Shown here one piece after another: positions 2,774 to 19,863 of a DNA stretch of 20,000 nucleotides (position 1 is the first letter of the stretch; the number at the start of each line of letters is the position of its first letter). The DNA is taken from positions 61,526 to 81,525 of the forward strand of contig JAFGVM010000057.1 in the NCBI GenBank assembly GCA_016937995.1, read 5' to 3'. Below the pieces are notes generated by a model. That model ran no database searches. It was not told where the DNA came from and saw nothing but the letters and a program-made list of their open reading frames with translations. A program made the translations under genes and the position numbers. This stretch comes from Candidatus Delongbacteria bacterium. Lineage in GTDB: Bacteria > UBA4055.

Positions 2774-2802
2774 TTGCCAATAGCCTTAGTTTTAGTTATA
2801 AT
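2774..2802 (+). promoter_or_regulatory. Sigma70-type promoter
   Basis: TTGCCA (2774-2779), 17-nt spacer, TATAAT (2797-2802), upstream of the GGAGGAG RBS and ATG 2858. Confidence 0.7.
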
Positions 2803-2857
2803 AGTAAATTATTGGATAATGTATGATAAATATAAATTTGTTTGTTCGGAGGAGAGA

Positions 2858-4414
2858 ATGAAAAAAATAATCACACTGGTATTGGTCCTTACGACTTTTG
2901 TTTTGACCGCTGCAATGGAAGAATATGACAGGAAATCAATATCTATTTTTAAAATGGATGTAACTCCTGCAGCTATCACTGCTACTCAGTCAGATGTCCA
3001 AATGATCTACGACGCGGTATTTCAAAAATTTACGAACATGGGAAGATTTGACTATAATCCCATACCAGCTGGAGTTACTAACGCTTCAGAACTTTTTGAG
3101 ATCGTAAAGGAATACACTGCAACAAAGATCGAAGAAAGAGCTGCAAAACAGTGGGATATAAAGAATGAGTATTACGGAACTAATTTTGTAACAGGAGAGA
3201 ACGTTGATAAGATAATGAACGGTGCATACATTCTCTTTCCTAGATTAAACGCATTCGCTGTTACAAAGAAAAAGAAAGGTGACGACTTTACAGCTTCGGT
3301 TTCTGTTTCAGTTGATGTCTATGCGGGAAAAAATACCGGTACAGTGGAAAATCCACAATGGACACCTGAATTGGTTAAGACTATAAATGCATCAGGTTCA
3401 AATGCTCTTGGAAGTTTATTTGATATTAACCTGAATCCAAAAAAGAAAGATAAGAGGAGCGAAGCGATAAAATCAGCTACGAATGGAATGCTTTTGTTTT
3501 TGGAAAAGGAGCTGAAGAAAATTGATGCTTTTAAAATAAAAGCTCTTGTAACTAAAGCTGAACCAAAGAAAGATAAAATAGCTTTTAATTTTGGAAAGAA
3601 CGTTGGTGTTAACGTTGACGATGCTTACACAGTTGGATATTTTATGAACAAAGGCGGTAAGCAGGAGTTCGTAGAAACAGGTTATATGAAAGTAAGAAAA
3701 GTCGACGACAAAGAATCAACTTCACAGCTTCTTATAGTTACAAATCCAAAGAATGAAAAAGAAGATGACCTTTTTAATGAGTACGATCAATGTTATGAAT
3801 ATCCTTTGGTTGGATTGAATATTTTTGTTCAGGGAGGTATGAACAGTTTTAAATTTTGGTCAGAAGATGCAGATTTTACTTCAACTCCTATAGTGGATTT
3901 AGAGGAAGAATCTATAACTGCTTTTGGTGGTTTAAATTTAGAATACGATATAGCAAAATTTGTTAAGATCCCTGAGTTGTATATTAATGCTACGTATGAT
4001 TTTTTGCCTGTTGAATTAGGTAATATAACTGAAATTGTAAATAGTGTATTGTACACTTATGAATATAGTGTAACTACTGGTATTGCTGAACTTGGATTTA
4101 CTAAGAAATTTTTTAGTAGAAGACTCGGATGGTATTTTGGAGCGGATGTAGGTTATATGATGATGAGTTTTGATCAAGGTGATGATACTACAAATGATTA
4201 TTATTCGGTAGGTGGTAAAGCAAAAGTAGGTATAAACTATATGCTTGATAAGCAATTACTTTTTGACTTAGGAGCAGGATATAGATTCTATGGTGAGTTA
4301 ACTGACGAAGATGGAAATGAAGTATTTGAAGCATGGGGTCCAGATTATGAAGGTGAAGGATGGTTAACACCTTCTGGATTTGTTGTTAGAGCAGGTTTAG
4401 GATTTACATTATAA
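2858..4414 (+). CDS. Secreted/outer-membrane protein: N-terminal periplasmic domain, FlgT-C-like middle domain, C-terminal beta-barrel
   Basis: Start moved to ATG 2858 (GGAGGAG RBS, signal peptide MKKIITLVLVLTTFVLTA). Middle segment IAFNFGKNVGVNVDDAYTV...GYMKVRKV resembles FlgT_C. The C-terminal ~190 aa are amphipathic beta-strands ending RAGLGFTL. Confidence 0.6.
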   Translation: MKKIITLVLVLTTFVLTAAMEEYDRKSISIFKMDVTPAAITATQSDVQMIYDAVFQKFTNMGRFDYNPIPAGVTNASELFEIVKEYTATKIEERAAKQWDIKNEYYGTNFVTGENVDKIMNGAYILFPRLNAFAVTKKKKGDDFTASVSVSVDVYAGKNTGTVENPQWTPELVKTINASGSNALGSLFDINLNPKKKDKRSEAIKSATNGMLLFLEKELKKIDAFKIKALVTKAEPKKDKIAFNFGKNVGVNVDDAYTVGYFMNKGGKQEFVETGYMKVRKVDDKESTSQLLIVTNPKNEKEDDLFNEYDQCYEYPLVGLNIFVQGGMNSFKFWSEDADFTSTPIVDLEEESITAFGGLNLEYDIAKFVKIPELYINATYDFLPVELGNITEIVNSVLYTYEYSVTTGIAELGFTKKFFSRRLGWYFGADVGYMMMSFDQGDDTTNDYYSVGGKAKVGINYMLDKQLLFDLGAGYRFYGELTDEDGNEVFEAWGPDYEGEGWLTPSGFVVRAGLGFTL

Positions 4415-4440: not shown

Positions 4441-5556
4441 ATGAAACTCAGAAAAATTATTATCATGCTGGTAGTTTTCAGCATTACAATGATCTACGCA
4501 CAGGCAAGTCAATATTCACATGACCACAATGTAACTGAAGTTGAAGTCAGTGGATACGGCTCATCCGTTCAGGTTGCTATTCAGGCAGCACAAAGAGAAG
4601 CTATATCAACTGCAATAGGTACATTTTTGACATCTGAGACAGAAATGCAGAATTACATGACAGTCAAAGACAAGATCCTTTCAAAAAGTGAAGGATTTGT
4701 AAAGTCCTTTGATGTGATCGACAGAGTAAAAGAAGCTGACGGTGGATGGACAGTAACAATAAAAGCAGCAGTTGCTAAAGATATGATCCTGACGGACCTT
4801 GAAGCACTGGGTGTTCTTTTATCTCAGCTGGATAATCCTTCAATAGTAGTTTTCTACGCACCGAAAGGAGAGCAGTATCATCCAAGATATACTGAACAGG
4901 CTATCAATCAGATCAATCAGTATTTTACAACATTCAGGTATGATGTGTATGATCTTGATCAATTGAACGCTATGATAGAAGATGATATCTCTATGAAAGA
5001 AGTCGGGTTGAACGAAGAAGTATCGATGGCTGAAATTTTGGCAAAGAAATTGAAATCAGATATTTATGTAACTGTAGCACTTATGCTGGAAGACCTAGGT
5101 AACGGTAAAAAGAAAGCTAAAGCTACTGCTAAGATATTCAATGCTTCAACAGCAAAATTACTGGGTGTACAGAACGGATACAGTGACGAGATCTATGGAA
5201 ATAACACTGCTCAGGATGCAAATATTGATCAGGCTGTTAAAAAACTTATGCCGCTTATTATGAACCAGGTTAAAGGTTACTGGAAACTTCAGCTGGATAA
5301 AGGTAAGCAGTACGTAATCATGTTCAGTAAACTTCCTAAAGGGAGAAAAGTTAAGAAGGCAATTACTGACGTTCTGTCTTCAGAGGCAAAAGAAATAAAG
5401 AAAGTTTCGACTACTGAATATCAGGTTTGGATCAGCGGTTCTATCGACGATTATATTGATGCAATCGGTGACGGAGTTCAAAATCAGATCTATGAAGGTA
5501 AGGATTTTGATTATGAGAATAGGGGAGACAGGATAAACATTTTCCCAGTGGAATAA
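4441..5556 (+). CDS. Secreted FlgT-N/LPP20-like domain protein (paralog A)
   Basis: Signal peptide. VEVSGYG...AIQAAQREAISTAIGTFLTSETEMQNY...DKILSKSEGFVKSFDVI...TVTIKAAV is the FlgT N-terminal-like pattern. Strong paralog of 11734-12948. Confidence 0.65.
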   Translation: MKLRKIIIMLVVFSITMIYAQASQYSHDHNVTEVEVSGYGSSVQVAIQAAQREAISTAIGTFLTSETEMQNYMTVKDKILSKSEGFVKSFDVIDRVKEADGGWTVTIKAAVAKDMILTDLEALGVLLSQLDNPSIVVFYAPKGEQYHPRYTEQAINQINQYFTTFRYDVYDLDQLNAMIEDDISMKEVGLNEEVSMAEILAKKLKSDIYVTVALMLEDLGNGKKKAKATAKIFNASTAKLLGVQNGYSDEIYGNNTAQDANIDQAVKKLMPLIMNQVKGYWKLQLDKGKQYVIMFSKLPKGRKVKKAITDVLSSEAKEIKKVSTTEYQVWISGSIDDYIDAIGDGVQNQIYEGKDFDYENRGDRINIFPVE

Positions 5557-6029: not shown

Positions 6030-6845
6030 ATGTTAAAGAAAATGACTGTTGCACTTTTTAGTGTGCTAATGATTATGTCCATCTTCACTGCTTGCACAGA
6101 TGAAAGTGATCCGGTAGCACCCGTAATTACGCCTGATGATACAATAATGTTAACTGTTGATGAAACTATTGATTCAACTTCTGCGTTTGAGTTCAAAGTA
6201 TCGACTGAAGATGTTACAAGAATCAAGATCTATTGGACGGAACTAGGAAGTGTTAATAATTCAGGTGAGACCGGAGATATTCAGGTATCAGTTTTAAAAA
6301 TGGATGGAGTTTCTCCGTATAAAATAATTGCAAATAGTAAAGATTTCATTAGAAAAGATAACAGTGAGATAGATGATCCTAAAGAAGTTTATGTTGATGC
6401 TGTCGAGGATACCCTGATAGTCAAAGTAGAACAAAAAACCGTACCTGGTACCTTCAAGCTCGTTGTCCAGAAAAATCCTGTTATTTTCTCTGTAAATGAT
6501 TCACTGATCGTTGATTCAGATATAAAAGATTATGAAGTATTCGTGAAAAATGCGGATAAAGCAATAATATACTGGCAGGAATTAGGTACATCTGAAGTGG
6601 GAAATGATAAAACTGCAAATGTTCAGGGGTCAGTTTACCAAATGGATTGGTTGACAGCTTACAAGCAGATCGAGAATGGTAAGGACTTTGAAGATAAAGA
6701 TAACAGCTCATGGGATAATCCTAAAGAAATCCTATTGGACAAAGGTGAGAATTTTATAAATGTAAGAATTGAAATGCTTGAGGATACAGGTGGTGTAATC
6801 GGTACATTCGGTCTGTTCGTTGTGGATACAAGTGATGAGGATTAG
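6030..6845 (+). CDS. Acidic lipoprotein with two tandem homologous beta-rich domains
   Basis: AAGGAG RBS, lipobox-like IFTA-C. Internal repeat: IKIYWTELG...YKIIANSKDFIRKDNSEIDDPKEV versus IIYWQELG...YKQIENGKDFEDKDNSSWDNPKEI. Confidence 0.8.
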   Translation: MLKKMTVALFSVLMIMSIFTACTDESDPVAPVITPDDTIMLTVDETIDSTSAFEFKVSTEDVTRIKIYWTELGSVNNSGETGDIQVSVLKMDGVSPYKIIANSKDFIRKDNSEIDDPKEVYVDAVEDTLIVKVEQKTVPGTFKLVVQKNPVIFSVNDSLIVDSDIKDYEVFVKNADKAIIYWQELGTSEVGNDKTANVQGSVYQMDWLTAYKQIENGKDFEDKDNSSWDNPKEILLDKGENFINVRIEMLEDTGGVIGTFGLFVVDTSDED

Positions 6846-8958: not shown

Positions 8959-9696
8959 ATGAATTTTTATATTGCTATAGATGATACAGATAATATTGGT
9001 ACTGCAGGAACTGGAGAGATCCTTGAAAATTTAATAGTTGAGCTATCAGATAAGTTTGAGACTTCATTTTCCAGAGTTACAAGACATCAGCTTCTTGTTC
9101 ACAAAGATATAAAATATACTTCACATAACAGTTCAATGTGTTCATCAGCATTTGTTGATACCTCAATTATTCCTTTTATTATCGATCACTCGATAGAATT
9201 TCTAACAAAAAATTGTGCAGAAGGTTCTGATCCCGGACTATGCATTGTTGATATAGATAAAGTGAATGATAATGGAGTTGAAAAGATCAAAAAGTGGGGA
9301 TCGGACGCTAAAAGAAATGTTCTCTGTAAAAAGGATGCATATTTATTGGCTAAGGAAACCGGAATTCACTTGTCTGAGCATGGTGGGACCGGAGATGGTA
9401 TCATTGGTGCTTTAGCCGGGATAGGGCTGAGACTTTCAGGGAATGATGGTAGATTCAAAGGTAAATTTGATCTAGATGTTAAGAACGGTTTTATCAAAGT
9501 TAGAGACATCCTTCTATCTCCGTCAATTGATATTGTAACAACAGAATGTGGTTCAAAGTTATCTCCGGATGATGAAGTATTTATCACCGACAAATTAAAA
9601 ACTATACTGAAAGATCACAAGTCTGTCCTGATGATCAGGAAGAATAAAGAAGGTCACTGGGAAAATCTTTCAAGAAAAGAGCTGAAGGTATATTAA
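8959..9696 (+). CDS. TiaS N-terminal-like (DDTD motif) protein of unknown function
   Basis: IAIDDTD..GTG, RHQL, YTSHNSSMC, SDPGLC, HLSEHGGTGDGIIGALAGIGL resemble the N-terminal catalytic region of TiaS. The tRNA-binding OB/zinc-ribbon part is absent. Confidence 0.7.
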   Translation: MNFYIAIDDTDNIGTAGTGEILENLIVELSDKFETSFSRVTRHQLLVHKDIKYTSHNSSMCSSAFVDTSIIPFIIDHSIEFLTKNCAEGSDPGLCIVDIDKVNDNGVEKIKKWGSDAKRNVLCKKDAYLLAKETGIHLSEHGGTGDGIIGALAGIGLRLSGNDGRFKGKFDLDVKNGFIKVRDILLSPSIDIVTTECGSKLSPDDEVFITDKLKTILKDHKSVLMIRKNKEGHWENLSRKELKVY

Positions 9697-11733: not shown

Positions 11734-12948
11734 ATGAAGCTAAAAATGATATTTATTTTGATAACAATGTTACTTATATCTTCCTGTGTAACAGTAAAGC
11801 ATGTTTCACCAATGGAAAGGGATAAGGATAAACTTGAAGAATCACCTGTTGAAGAAGTGAAGGTCGAAGAGCAGAATCTTACCACCGGAAACAAGATCAG
11901 TCAGTATTCTCATGATCATAATATAACGGAAGTGGAAGCTCAGGGGATCGGAGTTGACAGAGAATCTGCGATCAAAGATGCTCAGAGAAATGCAATTACA
12001 ACTGCAATCGGTACATACCTTGTATCAGAGCAGGAAATGCAGAATTATATGACCGTTAAAGATGATATCCTTTCAAAGAGTGAAGGTTTTGTGAAAGCTT
12101 ATGATGTTATCGATCAGATGAGAGAAGCTGACGGGAGCTGGACTGTGACTATAAAAGCAGCTGTCACAAAAGATATCGTGATGAGCGATCTTGAGTCGTT
12201 GGGAATCCTTTTAGCACAGCTTGACAATCCATCTCTGGTTGTTTTCTACGCTCCAAAAGGAGTAAATTACGACAAAAGATATACTGAGCAGGCAATAAAT
12301 AATATTAATCAGTATTTTACTATCAACAGATACGATGTTTACGATCTTGAGCAATTGAATAAAATGATCGAAGATGACATTGCATTAAAAGAGATCGGTC
12401 TTGATGAAAATGTTACAATGGCTGAACTTCTGTCAAAGAAATTGAAAGCTGATATCTATGTTACAGTAGCAATAATGCTTGAAGACCTTGGGAACGGTAA
12501 AAAGAAAGCTAAAGCCACAGCTAAAATATTCAATTCTTCCACAGCTAAGCTTCTAGGTGTTCAGAACGGTTACAGTGATGAGATATGGGGGAATAATACA
12601 GCTTACGATGCAAATATAGACCAGGCTATCAAGAAACTTATGCCGATGATAATGAATCAGGTTAAAGGTTACTGGGTAGAACAGCTTGATAAGGGAAAGC
12701 AGTATATTCTAATGTTCAGTGATCTTCCTCAGGGAAGAGAGTACAAAAAGGCTCTATTCGATATCTTAGATACAACTGCAAGAGAAGTGAAGAAAGTTTC
12801 TTACGAAGAATATGTTATCTGGATCAGAAAGAATATTGATGAATATATCGATTCTATCGGTGATGCAATTCAAAAGCAGATATATGATGGTAAGGAATTC
12901 GATTATGAGAATAGGGGTGAGCGGATAAATATTTATTTGACGAAATAA
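11734..12948 (+). CDS. Lipoprotein, FlgT-N/LPP20-like domain (paralog B)
   Basis: AAGGAG RBS, lipobox LISS-C. From SQYSHDHN onward it aligns end-to-end with 4441-5556. Confidence 0.7.
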   Translation: MKLKMIFILITMLLISSCVTVKHVSPMERDKDKLEESPVEEVKVEEQNLTTGNKISQYSHDHNITEVEAQGIGVDRESAIKDAQRNAITTAIGTYLVSEQEMQNYMTVKDDILSKSEGFVKAYDVIDQMREADGSWTVTIKAAVTKDIVMSDLESLGILLAQLDNPSLVVFYAPKGVNYDKRYTEQAINNINQYFTINRYDVYDLEQLNKMIEDDIALKEIGLDENVTMAELLSKKLKADIYVTVAIMLEDLGNGKKKAKATAKIFNSSTAKLLGVQNGYSDEIWGNNTAYDANIDQAIKKLMPMIMNQVKGYWVEQLDKGKQYILMFSDLPQGREYKKALFDILDTTAREVKKVSYEEYVIWIRKNIDEYIDSIGDAIQKQIYDGKEFDYENRGERINIYLTK

Positions 12949-15185: not shown

Positions 15186-15215
15186 TTGACATTGATTAGG
15201 TAAGTAAGATATATT
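15186..15215 (+). promoter_or_regulatory. Sigma70-type promoter
   Basis: TTGACA (15186-15191), 18 nt, TATATT (15210-15215). Confidence 0.55.
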
Positions 15216-15994: not shown

Positions 15995-16021
15995 AAAAGG
16001 GAGTGGTCCCTTTTTTTTTTT
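15995..16021 (+). terminator. Intrinsic terminator
   Basis: AAAAGGGA-gtgg-TCCCTTTT followed by a long T-run. Confidence 0.8.
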
Positions 16022-16075: not shown

Positions 16076-16711
16076 ATGAGATGTAATAATGACATAAATG
16101 AATTTGTTAAGGTAATTGCCAGTCAAGGTCTGGTAATATTACCGACAGACACTATCTATGGGTTTTCCTGTCTTCCGACATCGATCCATGCTATTGATCG
16201 GATTAAAAGTATCAAGAAAAGGTCAGATAAACCATTTATTATCCTTGATACCGATATGAAAAGGATGAGATCATATTTTAAATATGCTTTTGCTGACAAG
16301 GTGGTCAGAGAGATGATAAATGATAAAGTATGGCCGGGCAAAGTGACAGTCATAGCAGAAAAGTGTGCTAAAATAGACTATCCGTTTTTATCAGACATTA
16401 ATACGATAGCTGTAAGATGGCCGGATAACGATCTGATAAATGAATTGAATACGAAACTGAATTCTGGAATCATCAGCACGAGTATTAATAATTCTGGAGA
16501 GAAGGAGATAAATTCTTTATCCGAGATCAAGCATAATTATCACGACAAGGTCGATCATATTTGGGAAGATAATTCAGAATGTAATATACCATCGTTAATA
16601 ATCAGGATAGACAGTGAGTACAAAAAATTAGTGGTTGTAAGAGATCCCGGTACAACTGAATCCAAAGAAATATTGTTTAAACTGGATAATATAATAAATA
16701 GATGCCGATAA
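16076..16711 (+). CDS. tsaC: L-threonylcarbamoyladenylate synthase (TsaC/Sua5/YrdC family)
   Basis: ILPTDTIYG, IKKRSDKP, WPGKVTVI, TIAVRWP, STSINNSG. Single-domain length of 211 aa. Confidence 0.9.
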   Translation: MRCNNDINEFVKVIASQGLVILPTDTIYGFSCLPTSIHAIDRIKSIKKRSDKPFIILDTDMKRMRSYFKYAFADKVVREMINDKVWPGKVTVIAEKCAKIDYPFLSDINTIAVRWPDNDLINELNTKLNSGIISTSINNSGEKEINSLSEIKHNYHDKVDHIWEDNSECNIPSLIIRIDSEYKKLVVVRDPGTTESKEILFKLDNIINRCR

Positions 16712-19700
16712 ATATTTATACTCAATATACAAAACCGGAAGGTTCGATCAAATTTGATGATCTTGTGGCTGAGGCTAAAAAACTGGGTATAGATGCACTG
16801 GCATTGACCGATCATGGTAATTTTTCGGGTATTGAAGAGTTTTATAATGCCGCATTAACGGCAGGGATCAAGCCGATAATAGGAATAGATGTTTTTTGTA
16901 AACTTGAAAATGAACATTTCATCAGATCAATATTCTATATAAAAAATGAAACCGGTTACCGTTCAATACTGGACCTGATAAGCAACTTCAAACTGGCTGA
17001 GGAAGGATTTTACTATTTTTCTGTAGACTATCTTAAAGGTCTTCATGATATAATTATGATGGTAAACCTTTTTAAAACAGATCATCTGTCATCTCTTGTC
17101 AAAATAGATACCGACATTGAAGAGATCCATACACGGTTAAAATATTCTGACCTCAGGATAAAATATTACTTTCAGGTAATAAAAGATGATTCACCCGGAA
17201 ATTCTCTCATAACTTCTAATATTTTAGAATATGCCAAGGATAATGAAATTGAGCTTATTGCTCAGAATCCGGTTTATTATCTTAAAAAGGGTGAAGAAGA
17301 TGTTGCAGAATTTATGTTGAAGATGGGAGGGATCTTGCAGGAAGGTAAAAAAGATAAAAATCAGTATCTGGGAAGCCTGGAAGATCTTGCACATTTTTTT
17401 CCGAAGGGATCAATAGAAAATAAACAGAAGATAATTAAAGAATGCAATTTCCTGATAAGTAAATTGCCGATCAGATATCCTGATTTTGAACTTAAAACAA
17501 AAATTGACTATTCTTTTAACGAAACTTTAAAAGATATGGTCTGGCAGCGTCTTGAGTTCACTAAAAATGAAGAGGACAGGGAGAAATTAAAAGATATAAT
17601 ATTTGCTGAATTAGCTTATATAAGAAAATTTAATATTGCAGATTATATAATTTTTCTAAAGGAGTTTAAGGAAGAGTATAAACAAAAGTTCAATGGTGGA
17701 ATATTTTTCACTGGATTTGTAAGTGATCTTTTCATTGCTCATGCACTTGGACTTACCTGGTCTTCACCACTTTATATCACTCAAGCTTATCACAGATCTA
17801 TGCTGAAAAGTAAAAAATTACATCCTGTAATAAACATTATAATAGCATCAGATAAAAGGGATGAGTTCATTGAATATGTAAGCGGGAAATTCGGGAAGGA
17901 TAAAGTATGTTATTTGAGTGAATATGTCCGCTGGCATTCATTATCTCTGATAAATACACTGGTCAAGGAGTTCAAAGTTGACAATTCCAGTAAGGATGTT
18001 TTTATCAAGCATTTGAGCACTTTGAGCAAATACGGTTCGATAAAAGATATTATGGCGCAGGAGGATGTGAAAAAACTTCTGGTACGTCATCCTGAATATA
18101 AAGATATTTTTGCAAAAGCGGTAAAAACTGACGGGTGCTTTAAAAATTATAGTACTAATTCCAGTCAGATCGTTATAGGGAGTAAACCTATTAAAGAATT
18201 ATTACCAGTAAGTAAGACTTCTAATCTGGAATCAGGCGTTCTAAGATCTTTTTATGATATAAACACAGCAAAGTATTTTGGAGTTTGGAATATTAACATA
18301 GAGTCTCATACATATTTATCAATACTTGCAGAAGCCACTTCTCTGATCGAATCCGATAAGACAAAGATAAATGAACTCGCTAAAAAATTAACTGAGAGAA
18401 TAAAAAATGAGGATACGGATCTGATTCCGTTCTTCTCTTATGATGTGAACCGGGTCAGGTATCTGGATTTTACAAAAAATTATTTATTGAATTTAGCATT
18501 ATATTTTGAAGCGGGAAGGTCAAAACTGGATATTATTTTCAAAGATGAAAAAGAAACTCCTCCTCTGAAGAAATTTGAAAATGACCTTAAGATCACTGGT
18601 GGATATGTAGTTTTCAGAGAGCAATTGTTCTATGTTTGTGAAAAATTATTCCCATCGCAAGAATTTTTAAGTCTTAAGCATGGTATTTACAATAGTTCAA
18701 TTTATAACCAGTTCCAGTTCATACTCGATAGGCATCATGATGATAAGAAGAATGCTCAAAAGATAACCTGGTTAAAGAAAAAGGTTATAAATTCCGTGTT
18801 CTATGCCTCTTTATCCGAAATATCACTGAAGATATTCACTTCTTTAAAAATTCTTGACCTGAAATTATCTAAACCTAAAAAGTTTTATGAGATATTTTTT
18901 GTCAAAGAGGTAGAGAAAGAGGGGAACTGGAGAAAATTATTGATTGATATCCTGCAGATAGGATATAAGATATCAAAATACAATTCGCAGACCATTGTTA
19001 AAAATATTCAACTGGATAAGCAAAATTTAGAATTCAAATTACCTTTGTACACTGTGAAAGGAATTTCCCATAAAGTTTCAGATGTGCTTTATGAATATTT
19101 CAGTTCATCAGGTTTTTTGAATTTCAAGGGTTTTCTGGAGACAATAGATAAAGAAGTGATCAAGCACAATATTGTTAGTTTATTGATCAAAGTAGGTTTC
19201 TTCGATGATTATGATTCAAACCGCAAACAATTATTGCAGATAAATGATATTTACTTCAGGGAATTGAAGAACGAAGCTGTTCAGGATGAATTATTCTCAG
19301 AGGGATATGTGGAGCTTCAGGACGATGAAGTGGACGATTATTCCATTTTTGAGAAGATAGAACTGGAAAAGGAGCTGGTCGGTTTTGCTATCAGTGAACT
19401 GTCTCATACCAAAGAGGAATTTCTAAGTTATATTAAGTTTGAAAATAATATTTTGATCAGCAATATTCTAAAATTCGATGCAGTGAGAAAAGAGATATAT
19501 TTTTTTAAGGATAATCAACCGATCGCTCTGAATTTTAATGATGAGTTTATTTTAGAAGAATCAGCATTTTATAAAGTGTGGTACAGTGAAGAGAACGATA
19601 TTACGCGGTATGAGGTTTTAGAGAATATTTATAAAGATTCTGCTTATGTTCTTTATGTATCTATTCCTTCCACCAATAAGGATATCCTGACCGGATTACT

Positions 19701-19863
19701 GGAAATGACAAGGGATGAGGGTAATTGTGAGATTGAGATATTGTTTTCAGATTCTTTTGAGATCGTGAAACCTGGAAAAAGTATTTTATTGACAAAAACT
19801 AATTTTGAAAAGATCAAAAAATTGCTGAAAGACCTACCGTTTTATTTCCAACCAAAGGAATAA
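16702..19863 (+). CDS. dnaE: DNA polymerase III alpha (DnaE) homolog, predicted catalytically inactive
   Basis: PHP (ALALTDHGN..G, GIKPIIG), ELAYI...ADY, ITGGYVVFREQ, HhH (VKGIS), LIKVGFFD, QDELF, EKELVGFAIS are all present. The palm motif PDIDxDF reads PVINIII. Confidence 0.85.
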   Translation: MPINIYTQYTKPEGSIKFDDLVAEAKKLGIDALALTDHGNFSGIEEFYNAALTAGIKPIIGIDVFCKLENEHFIRSIFYIKNETGYRSILDLISNFKLAEEGFYYFSVDYLKGLHDIIMMVNLFKTDHLSSLVKIDTDIEEIHTRLKYSDLRIKYYFQVIKDDSPGNSLITSNILEYAKDNEIELIAQNPVYYLKKGEEDVAEFMLKMGGILQEGKKDKNQYLGSLEDLAHFFPKGSIENKQKIIKECNFLISKLPIRYPDFELKTKIDYSFNETLKDMVWQRLEFTKNEEDREKLKDIIFAELAYIRKFNIADYIIFLKEFKEEYKQKFNGGIFFTGFVSDLFIAHALGLTWSSPLYITQAYHRSMLKSKKLHPVINIIIASDKRDEFIEYVSGKFGKDKVCYLSEYVRWHSLSLINTLVKEFKVDNSSKDVFIKHLSTLSKYGSIKDIMAQEDVKKLLVRHPEYKDIFAKAVKTDGCFKNYSTNSSQIVIGSKPIKELLPVSKTSNLESGVLRSFYDINTAKYFGVWNINIESHTYLSILAEATSLIESDKTKINELAKKLTERIKNEDTDLIPFFSYDVNRVRYLDFTKNYLLNLALYFEAGRSKLDIIFKDEKETPPLKKFENDLKITGGYVVFREQLFYVCEKLFPSQEFLSLKHGIYNSSIYNQFQFILDRHHDDKKNAQKITWLKKKVINSVFYASLSEISLKIFTSLKILDLKLSKPKKFYEIFFVKEVEKEGNWRKLLIDILQIGYKISKYNSQTIVKNIQLDKQNLEFKLPLYTVKGISHKVSDVLYEYFSSSGFLNFKGFLETIDKEVIKHNIVSLLIKVGFFDDYDSNRKQLLQINDIYFRELKNEAVQDELFSEGYVELQDDEVDDYSIFEKIELEKELVGFAISELSHTKEEFLSYIKFENNILISNILKFDAVRKEIYFFKDNQPIALNFNDEFILEESAFYKVWYSEENDITRYEVLENIYKDSAYVLYVSIPSTNKDILTGLLEMTRDEGNCEIEILFSDSFEIVKPGKSILLTKTNFEKIKKLLKDLPFYFQPKE

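Follow-up and report, generated by a model that had tools for sequence, protein, structure and literature searches.

In the cited sections of two surveys of bacterial DNA polymerases, family C comprises only PolC and DnaE1-3, all of them catalytic (PMC3919608; PMC12926913); the 2026 survey was confined to complete genomes, and sequences that were truncated or had diverged strongly were dropped before its trees were built (PMC12926913). For family Y (ImuB), family B (the C-terminal half of Pol epsilon and archaeal forms) and family X, the parts of the literature drawn on here describe polymerase homologs that are inactive and have a structural or regulatory role. A full-text literature search, with survey supplements outside its scope, returned no inactivated C-family polymerase. 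The gene analysed here lies in a window of 20,000 nucleotides (the whole stretch of DNA examined; Candidatus Delongbacteria bacterium, assembly GCA_016937995.1, contig JAFGVM010000057.1, positions 61,526 to 81,525 of the forward strand; coordinates below are those of the window unless a contig or locus is named) and occupies 16702..19863 on the plus strand. It encodes a paralog of DnaE, DNA polymerase III's alpha subunit (Pol III alpha), designated iDnaE (inactivated DnaE), which is very probably not a polymerase and yet selectively maintained; we read it as the first C-family pseudo-polymerase.

The open reading frame (ORF) starts with ATG, comprises 1053 codons plus stop and contains no internal stop codon; its GC content matches that of its surroundings. 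In Pfam searches PHP (E 1.4e-21) and DNA_pol3_alpha (E 6.6e-19) scored over their cut-offs, and HHH_6 (PF14579) was matched by residues 778-844 with 23.7 bits, slightly below its cut-off of 25.6; PF14579 is present in the precomputed annotation of most orthologs. Against the NCBIfam DnaE models, whose cut-offs range from 434 to 1806 bits, the protein reached about 195 bits, the best scores being those to the DnaE1 models TIGR00594 (195 bits, cut-off 434) and PRK05673 (193.7 bits, cut-off 1002). With phmmer against the PDB, residues 3-550 were aligned with residues 10-574 of E. coli alpha (4jom, E 1.3e-27). An AlphaFold2 model was built from an 18-sequence alignment (mean predicted local distance difference test score, pLDDT, 82.8); its best Foldseek matches were the alpha subunits of Taq, M. 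tuberculosis and E. coli (top match 2hpi, E 1.7e-44), and with VIA-align model residues 1-856 were superposed on residues 5-910 of E. coli alpha (2hnh) with Z 31.6 and a root mean square deviation (rmsd) of 5.1 over 817 residues. iDnaE has the C-family DNA polymerase fold and is a homolog of DnaE-type Pol III alpha. An initial annotation of this DNA, made from the letters alone, had described an intact 1053-aa ORF colinear with Pol III alpha; the ORF call, the phmmer alignment and the superposition, which gave the complete Pol III alpha fold, bear this out. Charge and pI of the protein resemble those of active DnaE and are not discriminating.

The catalytic aspartates of E. coli Pol III alpha, which we take to be D401, D403 and D555 (Asp1 to Asp3 below), are occupied in iDnaE by V376, N378 and N532. 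In the phmmer alignment with 4jom, PVINIII (aa 375-381; 17824..17844) lies opposite PDFDVDF, the family form of which is PD(I/F)D(I/V)D(I/F), with Asp1 changed to Val and Asp2 to Asn; FTGF (aa 336-339; 17707..17718), in which the central Gly alone is kept, lies opposite GRGS; and N-I-N lies opposite K-F-D. K553 to N530 and D555 to N532 were obtained with phmmer and with MAFFT L-INS-i, and the surrounding NINIESH (aa 530-536; 18289..18309) replaces K(M/F)DFLGL. The substitutions at the first two motifs had been assigned in the same way, and to the same positions for PVINIII, by the initial annotation; at the third its claim that the acid is lost was right, but its register (GVWNINI, 18280-18300) was three residues off.

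The loss extends across the family. When 20 paralog members were aligned with nine active DnaE proteins (MAFFT L-INS-i), Asp1 was found to be non-acidic in 19 of the 20 members and Glu in one, Asp2 non-acidic in 20/20, and Asp3 Asn in 17/20, Glu in two and His in one; each member has at most one acidic residue among the three sites and 17 have none, so that the catalytic triad is kept by no member and the loss first noticed in the window holds throughout. GRGS (in iDnaE FTGF, in this alignment as with phmmer), THA, FQxES, YRPGP and FNxSH are replaced in 20/20 members and retained in 9/9 active proteins. In the fingers region of iDnaE (approximately aa 561-760; 18382..18981, delimited by the alignment and lying within the structural alignment, which runs through residue 856), FQxES, YRPGP, RKAMGKK and FNxSH are replaced, with YFEAG, ASLSE and KHGIYNS standing at the YRPGP, FNxSH and RKAMGKK positions; RKAMGKK, too, is retained in 9/9 active proteins. 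Retained are the E-Q of YQEQ (20/20 members; F-R-E-Q in iDnaE, 18613-18624), the R of FER in most members (R365, at the position of E. coli R390), TDHGN, KPIIG and the helix-hairpin-helix (HhH) region (G.FD...R). The replacement sequences are themselves conserved across the family (GVWNINIES, IFFSGFVNDL), a pattern that points to constraint on a remodelled site and not to drift.

The same columns bear on whether iDnaE might still be a polymerase, or another nucleotidyl transferase, with migrated or unconventional catalytic residues. E534, two residues after Asp3, is conserved, as are N530 and N532, R365 is kept in most members, and there is the precedent of archaeal PolB2, which according to the cited passages was predicted to be inactive yet is active (PMC8764526). 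Retained catalysis is nevertheless very unlikely: in essentially all 20 members uncharged or otherwise different residues have taken the place of the three carboxylates, GRGS, Lys553 and four fingers motifs, the residues at Asp1 (V/Q/L/I/R/E/H) and Asp2 (N/T/S/R/G) vary in a way unlike a new catalytic site, and at least two carboxylates are required for two-metal catalysis.

The N-terminal PHP domain (approximately aa 1-255; 16702..17466, delimited by Pfam, structure alignment and ligand table) keeps its fold (model residues 1-251 superposed on 4gx8, an alpha-epsilon chimera, with Z 24.3 and rmsd 2.4) and is degenerate in its metal site. HxH reads N-I-Y (16711-16719), as had been noticed from the sequence, and with MAFFT L-INS-i the whole HLHNH stretch was found to read PINIY, without His. 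The nine-ligand motif of PHP domains is given as HHDHEH[C/H]DH in the cited part of PMC12926913; three of the nine positions survive in iDnaE (E13, H38 and D63, with Asp/Glu swaps) and the other six are replaced in 20/20 members, so that the ligand set of a PHP-family metal-dependent phosphoesterase or proofreading PHP domain is not present. A role in which the PHP domain acts, as a phosphoesterase, a nuclease or a small-molecule- or metal-binding domain, while the dead polymerase body serves as a DNA platform, would accord with the PHP N-terminus being among the best-conserved parts of the protein (P12, E13, G14, T36, D37, H38, G39, K57, P58 and G61 do not vary among 18 members), with the ligand positions Asp3 (to Glu), His4 and Glu5 (to Asp) being occupied in 20/20 members, and with PolX proteins in which, in the cited passages, the PHP domain outweighs the polymerase site (PMC12926913). 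It is quite unlikely all the same, with only three of nine trinuclear-site ligands left and HxH, His6 (to Arg), Cys7, Asp8 (to Pro) and His9 (to Tyr/Phe) lost in 20/20 members. The PHP domain of E. coli alpha is likewise degenerate and is a docking site only, which also counts against this explanation.

In the source genome (2.75 Mb, 99 contigs, 97% complete) the Pol III alpha core is matched exactly twice, by iDnaE with 72.6 bits and by a frame on contig C22 with 326.9 bits. The latter is the canonical dnaE (L024:73-3591; 1172 aa) and carries HLHNH, GRGS, PDIDID, KMDFLG, YRPGP, YQEQ and FNRSH together with a complete set of PHP ligands; iDnaE is 25% identical to it, and fails as a functional DnaE1 equivalog on the catalytic Asp residues, on GRGS and the fingers motifs and on the NCBIfam cut-offs. 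A DnaE-type frame of at least 1165 aa was found in 14/16 genomes of the phylum as well, and all nine of the canonical genes that were checked for motifs keep every one. The source genome further contains one beta clamp gene (L044:736-1848), beside dnaA, one Y-family polymerase of the UmuC type (C48:5308-6603), in which QYSLF lies close to the C-terminus, and two genes for RNase T-type exonucleases.

Orthologs were sought in the 16 species genomes of the phylum in the collection, which all belong to one family and are mostly labelled Candidatus Delongbacteria. The paralog is present in 15 of them, one copy each. Twelve copies are full-length, uninterrupted open frames of 978-1054 codons, despite identity falling to 21-40%; the copy of G013 is split across two contigs, and those of G001 and G003 are fragments at contig ends. 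The G001 fragment (L016:3-329, minus strand), which comes from the genus of the window, contains a stop in KFN*L and is otherwise 83% identical to the window's protein.

The ratio of non-synonymous to synonymous substitution rates (dN/dS) was calculated by the Nei-Gojobori method for ten genome pairs, dS being saturated or non-computable for most. The informative pair (G009-G012) gave a dN of 0.100, a dS of 1.02 and a dN/dS of 0.098 for the paralog, against 0.018, 0.48 and 0.039 for canonical dnaE; for three more pairs, in which dS was computable but saturated, the paralog's dN/dS was 0.05-0.115. In most genera the non-synonymous rate of the paralog is 2-5 times that of canonical dnaE, and in the window's genus (G000-G002) identity is 80% for the paralog and 83% for the canonical enzyme. 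Between genera, identity is even across PHP, palm, thumb, fingers and HhH (0.39-0.48) and lower only in the linker, the OB domain and the C-terminal domain. By these values the whole body of the paralog is under purifying selection, looser in most genera than that on the replicase.

A slowly decaying gene, a pseudogene open by chance or an annotation artefact would fit the raised non-synonymous rate and the stops present in two partial copies. It is extremely unlikely given that all 12 full-length copies are open over 978-1054 codons with a dN/dS of about 0.1, that 42 columns are invariant among 18 members and that the model is confident. Because a canonical dnaE stands beside it in the genome, 12 copies are intact and measurable dN/dS is about 0.10, iDnaE is taken to be a maintained gene and not a decaying one. 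The initial annotation had proposed selection for a non-catalytic role; the canonical dnaE, the orthologs, the dN/dS values, the fold and the absent triad all support it.

A tree was calculated from 50 rows (11 paralogs, five canonical enzymes of the phylum and 34 random representatives from the top hits of 1000-1300 aa; other rows were excluded). The paralogs form one clade (Shimodaira-Hasegawa-like approximate likelihood ratio test, SH-aLRT, 100), the stem of which measures about 2.5 substitutions per site, and the canonical enzymes of the phylum form a separate clade nested among ordinary DnaE. In an approximately unbiased (AU) test on 23 rows (LG+G4), a single clade of the paralogs and the phylum's own DnaE was not rejected (p-AU 0.126); long-branch effects apply to this result, and a lineage-specific duplication is neither shown nor excluded by it.

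C-terminal to the fingers lies the beta-binding/HhH domain (approximately aa 761-857; 18982..19272, from the HHH_6 match and the structure alignment), which includes LLIKVGFFD. It is followed by the model's one long stretch with pLDDT <50 (aa 858-875; 19273..19326), a disordered loop that carries the clamp-binding-type motif QDELF (aa 861-865; 19282-19296). LIKVGFFD, HhH and QDELF had all been reported as retained, QDELF at these positions, and are indeed present. QDELF is the sole Q..[LMI]F in iDnaE; since about 0.2 such motifs per protein are expected by chance (a rough estimate), its weight rests on conservation at a homologous column and not on its presence. In the alignment column where canonical DnaE has its internal clamp motif the family reads Qx[ED]LF, with LF in 19/20 members and Q in 15/20, and in a separate alignment L864 and F865 were invariant across the paralogs and three active DnaE proteins. 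Judged by sequence, iDnaE carries a putative internal beta-clamp-binding motif after its HhH domain, and the low confidence of the stretch fits a linear motif on a flexible loop.

The phylum's canonical DnaE (L024:73-3591 and eight relatives) has W[DGE]xSLF[GA] as its internal motif, without a leading Gln; the Q(P/D)ELF of the dead paralog is closer to the consensus than this motif of the same phylum. The difference may bear on competition for the clamp.

iDnaE is probably, on these sequence features, a clamp- and DNA-binding factor without catalytic activity. The whole Pol III alpha architecture (PHP, palm, thumb, fingers, HhH/beta-binding domain, clamp-motif loop, OB and C-terminal domain) is retained, without nucleotidyl transfer on the reading adopted here, and replication is carried out by the canonical dnaE. 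In the mechanism proposed, the protein would dock on the beta sliding clamp through Q(D/P)ELF on the flexible loop and on primer-template DNA through the retained thumb-fingers-HhH cleft. It could then occupy clamp-loaded primer ends without extending them and, as placeholder, competitor or scaffold, control the access of the active polymerases, namely the canonical DnaE and the single UmuC-like polymerase. A bolder version, put forward tentatively and doubtful at present, is that of a dedicated non-catalytic replisome or clamp-associated subunit of the whole phylum, the first C-family pseudo-polymerase, pairing with or replacing active alpha on the clamp. If this were true, its tasks might include holding a place on the lagging strand, braking replication or managing the switch between polymerases.

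The remainder of the protein consists of an OB-fold domain (aa 911-975; 19432..19626) and a C-terminal alpha/beta domain (aa 979-1053; 19636..19860). The OB fold was identified by structure matches, to an RPA OB fold (Z 7.3, rmsd 2.5, 64 residues aligned) and to many OB folds of SSB, RPA, PriB and aminoacyl-tRNA synthetases (Z 6-7.9), which are middling but consistent. A separate model of the C-terminal 176 residues, comprising both domains, had full-length Taq Pol III alpha as its best three Foldseek matches, with E between 3.2e-4 and 5.2e-4 over about 200 aligned columns. The window's genus (g1) and the two most divergent genera (G004, G007) carry the OB segment. The last ~85 residues, with GNCE[IV]EI.FSD and with PFY near the end, are retained in 12/12 loci. 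The Pfam model of tau domain V gave no usable match (E 0.064); the same model matches only 3/14 control genomes and is uninformative here.

Upstream of iDnaE on the plus strand lies tsaC/yrdC (16076..16711; Sua5_yciO_yrdC, E 3.1e-33), the stop codon of which (TAA, 16709-16711) overlaps the start region of iDnaE (ATG at 16702). It is preceded by a UPF0158 gene (PF03682, 15311..15847, plus strand, E 2.3e-11), whose product is acidic, 178 aa long and has no solved relative by sequence, and further upstream by a divergent uvrD/pcrA. By consensus match only, a promoter-like site (15186-15215, 11/12 consensus matches) and a terminator-like hairpin between UPF0158 and tsaC (15995-16014) were located. 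Beyond the stop codon of iDnaE the window's contig runs on for 137 bases; in the nine relatives in which the region is visible, a convergent formiminotransferase-cyclodeaminase (FTCD) gene lies downstream. With PADLOC, the UPF0158 gene gave a weak match to Cas10a (E 0.0013), probably noise, and iDnaE gave no match to a defence system.

The order UPF0158-tsaC-paralog is kept in 9/12 loci, and UPF0158 lies directly upstream in 10/12. This conservation, with the overlapping stop and start codons in the window, is what speaks for a role outside replication and repair, tied to TsaC (t6A tRNA modification) and UPF0158, for example as a structural partner. The most divergent members (G004, G007), however, have unrelated neighbours, tsaC is missing from the G008 locus, UPF0158 and tsaC have a terminator-like hairpin between them, and the retained clamp motif, HhH, OB and DNA-cleft domains would be unexpected in a partner for tRNA modification; such a role is considered unlikely.

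Against iDnaE as a maintained, clamp-associated, non-catalytic factor stand the following points. At the former active site, E534 is conserved in 17/20 members and three divergent members have a single Glu at Asp1 or Asp3; residual metal binding there may occur, and the PolB2 case is a warning against predicting inactivity. A single QxxLF is weak alone, and P0123 is without the clamp motif. The OB segment is cleanly deleted in three genera (g4, g5, g7), and the OB domain is therefore dispensable for the function of the paralog. The neighbours tsaC and UPF0158 offer no link to replication. Among the orthologs, the partial copy of G001 has an in-frame TAA at codon 20 and that of G003 an in-frame TAG five codons before the contig end; in these poor assemblies (490 and 410 contigs) the stops may be errors, in G001 of sequencing, or real disruptions. 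No copy was found in G006 (91% complete), which is also without an orthologous tsaC, and the whole tsaC-paralog block may be unassembled there.

Beyond the 16 genomes, a word-indexed search of 5.8 billion proteins returned 16 close relatives (P0002-P0017, 32-81% identity), with a drop in score from 446 to 180 bits between these and ordinary DnaE. An 18-member profile searched against 1.84 billion representatives matched six full-length clusters and four fragments (220-1379 bits), ordinary DnaE appearing from 248 bits down. A scan with peptide patterns specific to the family, over 185,579 species with one genome each, matched 13 loci, all of the same lineage; its reach is set by the patterns, and at least one known divergent member escaped it. 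P0017, P0126 and P0271 form a branch of unlabelled 1063-aa proteins on metagenome contigs, outside the 16 species genomes, and a scan of the genome collection with P0017 gave no match. The nearest neighbour in the ESM Atlas is a 109-member cluster of ~1060-aa 'hypothetical proteins' with PHP, Pol3-alpha and HhH; the four of its members whose phylum is known are labelled Candidatus Sumerlaeota. So far the family is restricted to an uncultured phylum. In databases its members go by 'DNA polymerase III subunit alpha', 'PHP domain-containing protein' or 'hypothetical protein', mostly under Candidatus Delongbacteria, and the first of these three names is misleading on such genes.

No further fully inactivated DnaE was found by regular expression and alignment among the 147 best-scoring representatives (from the best 150 of 17171 matches); P0207, P0193 and P0241 were considered as dead DnaE and rejected, their aspartates being kept. 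As regards a phage origin, the best 80 of 357 viral-contig relatives included no family member and were of ordinary DnaE type, with 20-40% identity and partial lengths.

Elsewhere in the window, two genes for DUF6175 proteins were observed on the plus strand (4441-5556 and 11734-12948), 6 kb apart, 75% identical over 346 residues and both with signal-peptide-like N-termini. Between and around the two lie a TonB-dependent receptor, an ABC exporter and large ORFs without Pfam matches; the ORFs at 869-2743, 2774-4414, 6030-6845 and 8959-9696 (plus strand; 624, 546, 271 and 245 aa) had no Pfam match at E 0.001.

Among known systems, iDnaE is closest to DnaE1-type Pol III alpha (E. coli, Thermus aquaticus, M. 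tuberculosis), with which it has the fold, the domain order from PHP to the C-terminal domain and the place of the internal clamp motif in common. It differs from DnaE1 in lacking the catalytic triad, GRGS and the fingers motifs, in scoring far below every equivalog cut-off, in its very long stem and in coexisting with a canonical DnaE1 in the same genome. DnaE2/ImuC resembles it as a second, shorter DnaE-type gene (~1000-1090 aa) with a degenerate PHP domain beside the replicative one, but keeps its catalytic residues. iDnaE scored 114.7 bits with PRK05672, against a cut-off of 939, and neither imuA nor imuB was found near the paralog among the window neighbours or at the relatives' loci; the initial annotation had already remarked that the locus does not look like a dnaE2 cassette, which is borne out. 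DnaE2/ImuC was rejected as an identity for iDnaE on the loss of catalytic residues and on its neighbours, UPF0158, tsaC, uvrD and FTCD.

The analogy with ImuB drawn by the initial annotation holds in its logic: in the cited passages ImuB, too, is a polymerase homolog that is devoid of catalytic residues, carries a beta-clamp motif and is kept by selection (PMC11791113; PMC12926913). It does not hold as membership, since the fold of iDnaE is that of family C and not of family Y, no imuA, imuB or dnaE2 lies nearby and no gene of a partner polymerase is linked. A phylum-wide, full-length dead DnaE under purifying selection would extend the idea of the pseudo-enzyme to the bacterial replicase, and dead alpha, live alpha and clamp would make a simple three-protein system for clamp occupancy by a non-extending polymerase in replication or repair.

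The C-terminal half of Pol epsilon, inactivated archaeal PolB and dead-site PolX also keep a full-size fold after catalytic loss, according to the cited parts of PMC2669801 and PMC12926913, and these dead modules are presumably kept as structural or binding modules. They belong to families B and X, whereas iDnaE belongs to family C, and in PolX the PHP nuclease is active, whereas the PHP domain of iDnaE is degenerate. Were the tentative reading of iDnaE as a dedicated subunit correct, it would correspond, in bacteria, to the dead polymerase module that eukaryotic Pol epsilon contains.

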